A stretch of 64,000 nt of DNA from Octopus vulgaris (taxonomy: Eukaryota). Shown one piece after another: positions 39,337-42,300 of this stretch. The notes beneath the pieces are model-generated. The model was not told the DNA's origin. It saw only the letters and a program-made list of their open reading frames with translations, and did no database searches. Location: assembly GCA_951406725.2 (NCBI GenBank), contig OX597829.1, positions 23,002,001-23,066,000 on the forward strand, written 5' to 3'. Each line of letters starts with the position of its first letter. Within the stretch, counting starts at the first letter, position 1. A program made the translations under genes and the position numbers.

Positions 39337-40236
39337 CAGTGTCTCTCAACCACTGGACTTCCTACCTATGAAATCTTTTGGTGCCTATTTTACTCTGCCG
39401 GACCCTCCTAAACATTCGATGTTGAAAAAATCCTATTATGTTTTTATTATCTTTTCTACCCTAGACACAAGGCCCAAAATTTTGTGGGAGTGGACCGGTC
39501 GATTAGATCAACCCCAGTACGCAACTGGTACTTAATTTATCGATCTCAAAAGGATGAAAGGCAAAGTCGACCTCAGTGGTATTTAAACTCAGAACGTAGA
39601 GACAGATGAGATACCTATTACTTTACTACCCACAAGGGGCTAAACACAGAGGGGACAAACAAGTACAGACAAATGGATGAAGTCGATTATATCGACCCAG
39701 TGCGTAAATGGTACTTAATTTATCGATCTCGAAAGGATGAAAGGCAAAGTCGATCTCGGCGGAATTTGAACGCAGAACGTAAAGACAGACGAAATACCGC
39801 TAAGCATTTCGCCCGGCGTGCTAACGCTTCTACCAGCTCACCGCCTTTAATAATCTTTTCTACTATAAGCAGAAGGTCCAAAATTTTAGGGGAGGAGGCC
39901 AGTTGATTAAATCAACCCCAGTTCGCAACTGGTACTTAATTTATCGACCCCGAAAGTATTAAGGCAAAGTCGACCTCGACGGAATTTGAACTCAGAACGT
40001 AAAGACAGACGAAATACCGCTAAGCATTTCGCCTGGCGTTCTAACGTTTCTGCCAGCTCACCGCCTTTTTGTTATGCTTTTATAATGAAATATTAGGAAT
40101 TGTATTAAAAGAAGTATTAAAATATTTTTGTGTATTGTAGAAATATAACCAACTTATTGCAGATTAAGTTTAATAACAAGATCTTGGAACTCCAAGGAAC
40201 CCTAAGGACTATATGGATCCCGATTGAGCACCACTG
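39337..40236. mobile_element. Charlie/hAT-like MITE split by SINE family A copies (dimer 39450-39846, monomer 39852-40066, both minus)
   Basis: Ends CAGTGTCTCTCAACC / GATTGAGCACCACTG. The body is the reverse complement of the 49297-49852 MITEs. Confidence 0.7.
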
Positions 40237-41031
40237 GAGTAAACTTTTCACCTTCATGGGCCAGAGGGAAGATGGAAGTGGTGGGGGTGATTTTATAATT
40301 AATTACGTCGACTTCGTTTTCGTATCTGGTTTACAAGATTCTTTATGCGAATTCGTGTGTTGAAGCAAAAAGCAACGAAAATTTTGGAAAAGAAAAAAAT
40401 ATGAATAATAAATGAGCGAAAATCGAACCAGTGTGTGTGTTAGATAATAAGGCATTAAGACAATATGGCTCTCTGCAGACACAACAAAATATGTCGACTT
40501 CCCCAGTTCTTAAATATTATTTATTGCGTCAACTCAGTGTATATTAGATAACATTACAAATTTATCATCTTCTTTATTGTTTATTTTTATTATGAGAAAG
40601 GATGATTTATTTGAAAAATATTCTCAACGACAGGCGTTTCCTATTAAAACATAGTGATGCATCATCATATCTCAGGGGAAATGTCAAAACGACTTAAGAT
40701 CTTGTCAAACAACAGACACATAAATAAGTAGGGTGGAATATTCTCTACCCGTAAGTATCAACGCTTCTCACGAAATATTTTACTTTGAATGAATTTAAAT
40801 GGATTTCCTGCTGATAGTTAAAATGTATGTCTGTAGAACCTTAAAAAGAAGAAAAAATACACGGAAACATATATTTCGTCAGATTTAAAAAGAAAATAAT
40901 GATAAGCTAAATAGTTTCTTTATTTCTTCAAAAGATATACTTGAAACTTCTAAAAGCCATCAGTTTATACTCAAAATAATAATAATAATAATAATAATCG
41001 TTTCTACTAAAGATACAGAGCCCATAATTTG

Positions 41032-41349
41032 CCATACTAATATGGCATTCTTATAAAAATAAGAATAAAGCTGTCCGCTTATTAGCTCCATGAGGCCATC
41101 GCCTTAAGTTAGCTATTTGATACACAAACTGTATCCATATAACCTTCGAACAAGGGAGGTCAGTCGCTCCACACTACTTGACCGGCAGCTGCAGACGCGT
41201 TTCGGGGTATTGCCCCTTTTCAATGCAGCGTAGCCAGACCAGTAGGTGTCGCTTCTGACAATCTCTGTTCGAAGGTTTTATTTACCTAGCTTCGGTGGAA
41301 TACATCCACTTGTTTTCAATAATAGAAATATTAAAATTACTAAGTCTCT
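41032..41349 (-). mobile_element. Short hammerhead-bearing insertion (Penelope/retrozyme-like)
   Basis: Flanked by 43-bp direct repeats at 40989-41031 and 41350-41392 (one mismatch). No ORF. Confidence 0.75.
41188..41229 (-). ncRNA. Minimal type I hammerhead ribozyme, U3-A8 core variant
   Basis: GCUGCA-UUGAAAA-GGGG(caaua)CCCC-GAA-ACGCGU-C-UGCAGC. Perfect stems I and II, GUC cleavage triplet. Confidence 0.8.
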
Positions 41350-41359
41350 TAATAATAAT

Positions 41360-41780
41360 CTTTTCTACTAAAGATACAGAGCCCATAATTTGGTTGGGTC
41401 AGAGCTAGTCGATTACATCTACCACAGTGTTTCACTGGTACTTAATTTATCGATCCCGAAATTTGAACCCAGACCGTGAAGACAAACGATATGCCGCAAA
41501 TCATTTCTCCTGGCGTGTTAACGATTCTACCAGCTCGCCGCCTTAATAAAAATAATAACAATCCTTTCTACAATAGGCAAAGGGCCTGAAATTTAGGGGG
41601 GGGGGGGGGGGAATAGTCGATTACATCGACTCTAGCATGCAACTGGTACTTATTTTCATAACCCTGAAACGATGGAAGGCAAAGCCGACCTCTGTGGAAT
41701 TTGAACACAAACGTGAAGATGGACAAAATGCAGCTAAGCATTATACCTGACTCGCTAAACGATTTTGACAGTTCACCACC
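41360..41780 (-). mobile_element. Two diverged SINE family A copies
   Basis: 41360-41542 and 41563-41780 match the family with the alternative tail. Confidence 0.8.
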
Positions 41781-41782
41781 TA

Positions 41783-42300
41783 AGTACCAGACAGTGGCTC
41801 TCATGGTTTCTGATCTTAAATGATTGGAAGTGTTATCATGTACATTGTTTTGTCTTGGTTTAAAAGAAGGGCTACAGCAAATATTCTGCTCAATACTACA
41901 GATTTGCTTGTCAGTTGTTTGACCGTAACCAGTTGAGCATGTCCCTTAGTGGCTGACGATATGTGCATCTCTGATCACGAGCAGAAGCAGTGGGGGAGCA
42001 CCATAGCCATGTGTTGAAAGGAATTCTTAGAGGTTTGGATAATTCACCTTTGGAAACACGGGTGGTTCGTTCGACATCCTTAAACCTTTTGAGCGGGATG
42101 AGCTACTCGACCAGAAGGAAACTTTAACTGGGCCTCACCTGCGCTGTTTATGTTGATATAAGATCATCCATGTCGTGCACATATGGTTGTGATGCATGTG
42201 CCTGGTGTACCCTTAACAGACGGGTAGTCATGATGCGTATATTGGGCTTCGTATATTTGTACTCCCAGTGTCACTTTGATGGCATGCACTGCTCTCACTC
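41783..42300 (+). mobile_element. ~555-bp (AAT)n-associated element, copy 2
   Basis: Colinear with 427-983; 3' end abuts (AAT)n. Confidence 0.85.

Follow-up and report, generated by a model that had tools for sequence, protein, structure and literature searches.

A truncated copy of a young U3-A8 hammerhead family in Octopus vulgaris, a likely non-LTR retrozyme likely copied by a Penelope-like enzyme

Results

We analyzed a 64,000-nt stretch of the Octopus vulgaris genome (GCA_951406725.2, contig OX597829.1, positions 23,002,001 to 23,066,000, forward strand), here called the window. A 319-bp insert at 41031..41349 on the minus strand interrupts a SINE-like host repeat, and alignment with the family to which it belongs identifies it as positions 1-319 of a 363-bp unit. 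The head of the host repeat, which follows a (TAA)n tract (40975..40998, plus strand), forms the left copy of a putative target duplication (40989..41031, plus strand), while the right copy (41350..41392, plus strand) runs on into the body of the interrupted repeat (41393..41545, plus strand), all three by sequence comparison. One of two target breaks probably lay inside the (TAA)n tract, judging from the boundary of the duplication. The insert is a monomer with one hammerhead, no open reading frame of at least 100 aa lies over it, and contigs from DNA runs under two organism labels cover it.

Further copies of the host repeat begin at 39453, 39857, 41565 and 2015 of the window, and its body at 41393..41545 has very high depth in DNA runs; the label "SINE" and the likeness of this repeat to octopus SINEs and other repeats are our assumption. 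Such repeats cluster head to tail at 39440-40070 and 41350-41790, with one of them internally duplicated.

A sequence-only reading of the window had placed the insert between 43-bp duplications. The repeats are indeed present, with 42 of 43 bases matching between 40989-41031 and 41350-41392 and one base common to the element end, but they are host-repeat and not family sequence, and a rare feature of one copy. The 43-bp head is single in paralogous host repeats elsewhere in the window, and we therefore read the flanking repeats as a target duplication. We rejected membership of the 43-bp repeat in the unit, since the segment that joins units in the family is a different constant sequence; the sum 319+44=363 is coincidental. 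Long unique duplications flank only 3 of 72 insertions examined, namely the window copy (42), L022 (22) and L053 (73 plus TA). At each of the three, the adjacent arm has a non-standard 3′ end, and both L022 and L053 are two-armed events of the type made by Penelope-like elements (PLEs).

The 5′ end of the window copy coincides, apart from a slip of 1 nt, with the 5′ boundary preferred in the family, and short microhomology is present there. Its first 31 nt (41319..41349, minus strand) are the stretch that family alignment finds repeated at the 3′ terminus of sister copies as the "long" (tailed) end. Its 3′ end lies at unit position 319, 12 nt before the standard "short" end, so that the window copy taken by itself has neither standard 3′ end, and it has no (TA)n target. 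It stops on a hairpin (41031..41046, unit positions 304-319) that is present in every family copy compared. What had been taken for a junction palindrome (GCCATA-ctaa-TATGGC) is this constant internal hairpin and was not made by the junction.

A type I hammerhead motif, identified from sequence and both conserved and covarying across subfamilies, occupies 41188..41229 on the minus strand, with a predicted cut between 41194 and 41193. Stem I has 6 bp (41229-41224 with 41193-41188) and leads into the core UUGAAAA (41223-41217), in which U3 and A8 replace C3 and G8; a GGGG/CCCC stem II with a 5-nt loop, GAA, the helix III palindrome ACGCGU (41200-41195) and C17 (41194) follow. The type I core set (C3U4G5A6N7G8A9, G12A13A14, A15.1-U16.1, H17) is complete save for the published U3-A8 swap. 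Folding, covariation and RNAalifold agree on a 137-nt rod (41141..41277, minus strand) that prolongs helix I through a UAC/U internal loop, distal helices and a GUCAG/CUGAC helix (41255-41259 with 41159-41163) and is closed by a 12-bp outer helix (41141-41152 with 41266-41277). Stem I, the core, stem II, the GAA-ACGCGU-C stretch and the GTCAG/CTGAC and 12-bp helices had been described before and were all recovered at the same positions. The predicted fold of 41130-41290 (minus strand) has -68.9 kcal/mol (z -6.3), and 0 of 200 shuffles were as good. The UAC/U loop and a CAAUA or CAAAUA loop presumably resemble the Schistosoma motif (loop 1-loop 2).

Rfam gave no hammerhead match at gathering or at E≤10. 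At gathering the window had no Rfam match of any kind, and the only matches around the insert and on an array were sub-threshold and at chance level (CrcZ; RT-2, 21 bits against 40). Rfam models may be insensitive to the variant U3-A8 core. The swap had been read as a compensatory 3-8 variant; it is present, but it is not new, having been published already (PMC4209133, PMC3088659). Natural examples and activity in vitro are both reported (PMC3088659), and about 1,300 PLE motifs of Schistosoma carry the swap (PMC4209133).

PLE hammerheads, including those of U3-A8 families among the Cercyon elements of Schistosoma mansoni, share with the octopus motif the 3-8 covariation and a palindromic helix III region, and are likewise expected to act as dimers (PMC4209133). 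In the minimal PLE motifs described there, helix II measures 7-8 bp and helix I 4-5 bp, and position 10.1 is preceded by an unpaired base. The octopus motif differs in its canonical helices (I 6 bp, II 4 bp), the lack of an extra base, its long rod and an ORF-less unit. Contrary to what the earlier reading had implied, the predicted octopus hammerhead is by its geometry not a PLE minimal hammerhead.

The copies and tandem arrays for which that reading had proposed a genome search are both present in the 2.8 Gb searched (227 contigs). Dispersed young copies 98-100% identical to the insert lie on many contigs (64 matches; 40 scored of 1431 candidates), copies on C18 and C2 being 100% identical to it, and several copies form tandem arrays of period 362-363 that reach 8 units. 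The family unit of 363 bp (GC 0.41) consists of the 319 bp of the window copy plus a constant 44-bp segment, absent from the window copy, that joins units in arrays. Every unit of the dimers and multimers carries a type I hammerhead, the 363-nt monomer as a circle has a predicted fold with z -7.5, and subfamilies diverge to about 82% identity. Contigs from four runs guessed to be RNA cover the whole unit and reveal neither strand, level nor cut sites.

An exact 30-nt core occurs 892 times in the genome versus 0 in the control, and a relaxed U3-A8 pattern has 1736 matches versus 1 for the reversed control, which argues that the U3-A8 hammerhead motif is not due to chance. The ACAUGU form of the pattern adds 2828 matches versus 203 in the control and mixes an old retrozyme subfamily with a PLE. 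The C3-G8 version of the relaxed pattern had 9 matches versus 4, and a canonical C3-G8 version of the family was rejected, as 0 of these 9 had the family stems and one (L062) was related to a second family. That second, older repeat family (L187-L206, e.g. L187:1500-1720 and G000:C1:113374849-113375119; 72-83% identity to its own query) has a U3-A8 type I hammerhead with other stems and is otherwise unlike the 363-bp unit. Since its relative L062 has C3-G8, positions 3 and 8 covary inside one family.

Further observations concern single loci. At L020:1501-2194, an A6G change in the catalytic core is common to two of the three units. At L039:1590-6945, a retrozyme array is broken between unit positions of about 110 and 95 by an apparently intact non-LTR element of the endonuclease-RT type with two ORFs (370 aa and 1140 aa), in what looks like an insertion into the unit with a short duplication. 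A 6.6-kb core pair on C1 and gaps in other loci, considered as autonomous parents, proved to be independent insertions or unrelated L1/RTE-like elements.

We compared the core and stems among copies. U3 and A8 were kept in 45 of the 45 top copies and were invariant in 34 of 34 aligned rows, some of them chosen by a pattern that contains U3-A8. Core position 7 varies among subfamilies (A, C or U), and the helix III palindrome reads ACGCGU in 22 rows and ACAUGU in 10 and is broken in 2. Four base pairs, spread over helices I and II and two distal helices, switch both sides between subfamilies, G-C versus A-U, in rows that are related. Paired cells made up 93.4%, versus 33-46% with slid partners, and cells with double changes exceeded all 500 shuffles, again among related rows. 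In the same related rows the number of pairs with a double change was not above shuffles (6 versus 5.3; 212/500), and further pair types were below them, so that of five shuffle measures one was not significant and one was below. RNAalifold recovered the 137-nt rod independently. The core and stems are thus kept in other copies, whose failure to conserve them had been named as grounds for refuting the earlier reading, and helices I and II have support from covariation among these related rows.

The sister copies sit in (TA)n and have two fixed 3′ ends 63 nt apart, one at about position 331 ("short") and one 31 nt into the next unit ("long"). The counts leave out six duplicate loci (L004, L019, L167, L170, L182, L184) and also L044, which belongs to a different family. 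Among 70 loci there were 44 two-armed, diverging insertions, of which 37 combined a long and a short end, 1 had two long ends and 6 had a non-standard end; opposite ends thus lie on the inverted arms in 37 of 38 classifiable cases. The 31 single arms comprised 18 long, 8 short and 5 other ends. At L169:973-1904 and L038:907-2887, the host flanks are mutual inverted copies (108 bp and 26 bp), which looks like an inverted duplication of target DNA in the course of insertion.

Insertions of PLEs are described as partial tandems with an inverted 5′-truncated copy and a tail at one end (PMC8557442). The tail corresponds to the interval from one internal RT start site to the other, and both strands are cut (PMC11167929). 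The octopus family has this anatomy, with partial tandems, inverted 5′-truncated arms, a tail at one end and a microsatellite target. The dispersed young copies, the tailed and inverted insertions, the arrays and the presence of intact PLEs in the genome bear out the proposal of a small non-coding, probably Penelope-mobilised element.

The 363-bp unit contains no ORF with RT and GIY-YIG; such ORFs lie elsewhere in the genome. A GIY-YIG search (6136 candidates, of which 150 were scored) identified a young PLE family with intact 781-aa ORFs that carry RT and GIY-YIG and have an overlapping 479-aa frame upstream (L147-L159, L161, L166; e.g. L151:1581-5281). Their linker, CX4CXXC, is typical of Neptune/Nematis (PMC8557442), and no solved structure matched the PLE protein by sequence. 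The repeat-rich 3′ region of this PLE has a U3-A8 hammerhead about 75 nt before its short end, and the core UUGAUAA..GAAACAUGU has the same letters as that of the oldest retrozyme subfamily. The PLE also has two ends, 38 nt apart, that run into (TA)n. In L157 and L159 one of the inverted arms carries one of these ends and the second arm the other, and the final 7 bases of the PLE long end are identical to those of the retrozyme's long end. The 363-bp unit and the PLE end have no alignable sequence (14-95 of 100 shuffles score as high), a model built on the retrozyme rod did not match the PLE hammerheads, and no homology of the unit to the pLTR of an autonomous PLE was found among the inspected loci (30+20 GIY-YIG, 30+20 Hydra-like). 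The link between retrozyme and PLE is drawn because of insertion anatomy and the shared core, not sequence homology. We lean slightly towards the young Neptune-like 781-aa PLE as the best candidate partner.

The mobiliser could instead be another PLE, whether Hydra-like, Naiad or a Neptune family beyond those inspected, which we regard as quite possible if somewhat doubtful. The 781-aa element has no sequence homology to the unit, the scored share of the GIY-YIG candidates leaves room for other families, and (TA)n targeting cannot identify the partner, since it is common to Neptune, Hydra and Naiad PLEs (PMC8557442). Several Hydra-like families are intact (L097-L116, ORFs of 842-1091 aa, with intact ORFs of 976-1091 aa), and three of their ORFs had no RT or GIY-YIG Pfam match. 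However, the inspected Hydra-like elements have C3-G8 hammerhead-like cores upstream of the ORF, near the 5′ region, and no sequence in common with the 363-bp unit, whereas the 781-aa family is young like the retrozyme A subfamily and has in common with the retrozyme the rare core and the 7 terminal bases of the long end. Another GIY-YIG PLE family (L160, L164) carries a CUGAAGA-type hammerhead-like core downstream of the ORF, before a (TA)n end. A decayed PLE beside L055 was set aside as a coincidental neighbor, since its intact relatives have only an 18-nt AT-rich match in common with the unit.

The same insertions bear on the template. The 5′ boundary peaks at a unit position of about 361 (16 of 28 rows), and although most loci were chosen for full coverage, this favors boundaries upstream of position 1 and not such a sharp peak. 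Full-length copies from 361 to the long end measure 394-398 nt. There was no pile-up of 5′ ends at the predicted cut site, with 4 of 119 arms ending within 150-163, and 101 of the 119 arms read through it. The 110 locus-private variants at positions covered by at least two units were present in all covering units in 13 cases, in some in 9 and in one in 88. L037 has five private variants in all three units, and sharing was also seen in L032, in L053 and in both arms of L015. Such sharing suits repeated copying of one monomer, and it suits homogeneous parent arrays or later tandem duplication equally.

So sharp a 5′ boundary, at about 361, is more readily explained by a linear transcript than by a circle. 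The same PLE-mobilised family might be copied from uncut linear read-through transcripts that begin near 361. The hammerhead would then be conserved because it serves processing or provides a fold for protein binding, and copying would not involve circles. The 394-398-nt copies and the read-through of the cut site fit this, and the Poseidon PAc element uses unprocessed RNA and did not need its hammerhead for insertion in vitro (PMC11167929). Read-through fits a circle equally, however, and arrays of up to 8 units with shared private variants are simpler from one monomer. The evidence from these copies splits between a circle and an uncut linear RNA as the likely template, and we hold the account without circles to be possible while leaning against it.

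Discussion

With fair confidence we read the insert as a truncated member of a young, non-coding tandem repeat family that has a 363-bp unit and a U3-A8 hammerhead motif. The family is likely a non-LTR retrozyme, and a PLE enzyme likely copies it into DNA. No published account of the 363-bp octopus family was found in the open literature covered; small PLE hammerhead variants may be catalogued in subscription papers.

The animal non-LTR retrozymes (PMC7229834) offer the closest comparison. Their units range over 150-450 bp (mussel about 350-390 bp) with GC below 50%, and the octopus unit has 363 bp and 41%. Like them, it is non-coding, has one type I hammerhead per unit and occurs as monomers to multimers, with a strongly self-paired predicted circle, duplications of more than 4 bp when present, and PLEs in the genome (PMC7229834). 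Unlike them, it has a U3-A8 core, and the main text of that paper mentions neither C3U nor G8A nor octopus. Its arrays are also short and mostly two-armed and PLE-type. As far as sequence can tell, the octopus family agrees with the animal non-LTR retrozymes in those defining features that can be tested, and it appears to work like them.

The family also resembles non-autonomous PLE derivatives (10.64898/2026.07.22.740005; MRC1-type, PMC8557442), for which head-to-tail insertions are described and PLE machinery is proposed for a retrozyme. There, 24 of 57 families are homologous to known elements, mostly PLE pLTRs (10.64898/2026.07.22.740005), whereas the octopus unit had no such homology among the PLEs inspected. 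Poseidon PAc in vitro has two internal RT starts separated by a "tail", cuts both strands and uses an AT-rich target, as the octopus insertions suggest; the octopus tail differs in measuring 63 nt versus 30-40, as do its non-coding passenger and the strict pairing of long and short ends on inverted arms (PMC11167929).

We propose that family arrays would be transcribed and that two hammerheads would pair through their palindromic helix III and cleave after GUC, releasing 363-nt monomers that may circularise. Dimeric cleavage and probable circularisation are established for coral, mussel and axolotl retrozymes (PMC7229834), and by analogy we infer both for the octopus family. Its hammerhead activity is not guaranteed, given that 8 of 9 tested retrozyme dimers of Xenopus did not cleave (10.64898/2026.07.22.740005). 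A PLE RT/GIY-YIG protein would then nick both strands of AT-rich DNA, cDNA would start at two internal sites separated by 63 nt, each of them used at one of the DNA ends, and a run through several units would yield arrays.

The window copy would be an off-pattern product of this process. One break would have fallen in the (TAA)n tract and the second in unique sequence at a distance of 42 bp, where it would have primed cDNA at the non-standard site 319; synthesis would have run to the preferred 5′ boundary, and repair would have duplicated the 42-43 bp between the two breaks. We infer that a second break outside the microsatellite primes cDNA away from the usual site and reveals the stagger. 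With one hammerhead and without the joining segment, the copy is probably a dead end.

It is conceivable but unlikely that the window copy, in a family that is otherwise PLE-mobilised, came from ordinary DNA repair, either at a staggered break that received a templated insertion of family DNA or cDNA, or through a local 43-bp tandem duplication with capture. Its non-standard 3′ end, its target other than (TA)n, the 1-3 nt of microhomology at both junctions and the one mismatch between the repeats would suit such an origin, but its 5′ junction lies on the family's preferred boundary, and the two other insertions with long duplications beside a non-standard end are two-armed and PLE-type. That the insert belongs to a satellite or SINE-like repeat with a decayed or chance likeness to a hammerhead is highly improbable, for although Rfam gave no match and cleavage is predicted from the motif alone, the core varies among subfamilies at position 7 only, the stems and palindrome change in compensated ways, and the same core recurs in an unrelated family and in a PLE.

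For the PLE-copied retrozyme that we favor, a more specific model can be put forward only tentatively, and we give it low credence. A dimeric Penelope-type protein would prime both ends of a break on one 363-nt circle at two fixed starts, and rolling synthesis would produce the arrays. The parasite would be matched to its Neptune-like host not by terminal sequence but by structure, to which a shared U3-A8 hammerhead belongs; through the palindromic helix III of that hammerhead, the ribozymes of parasite and host could pair in trans. Copies like that in the window would expose a cut stagger of 20-90 bp that (TA)n normally hides.

The retrozyme class, the U3-A8 core variant and the proposed link to PLEs are all already in print. 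The value of the octopus family lies in its use as a test system, as one genome contains both a non-coding passenger and an intact candidate PLE, each of them young. Together with the existing in vitro PLE assay, the strict pattern of ends (37/38) could be used to ask whether PLE proteins mobilise retrozymes in trans, and whether such mobilisation requires hammerhead cleavage and circles. To this the window copy contributes a rare readable duplication, probably of the target.
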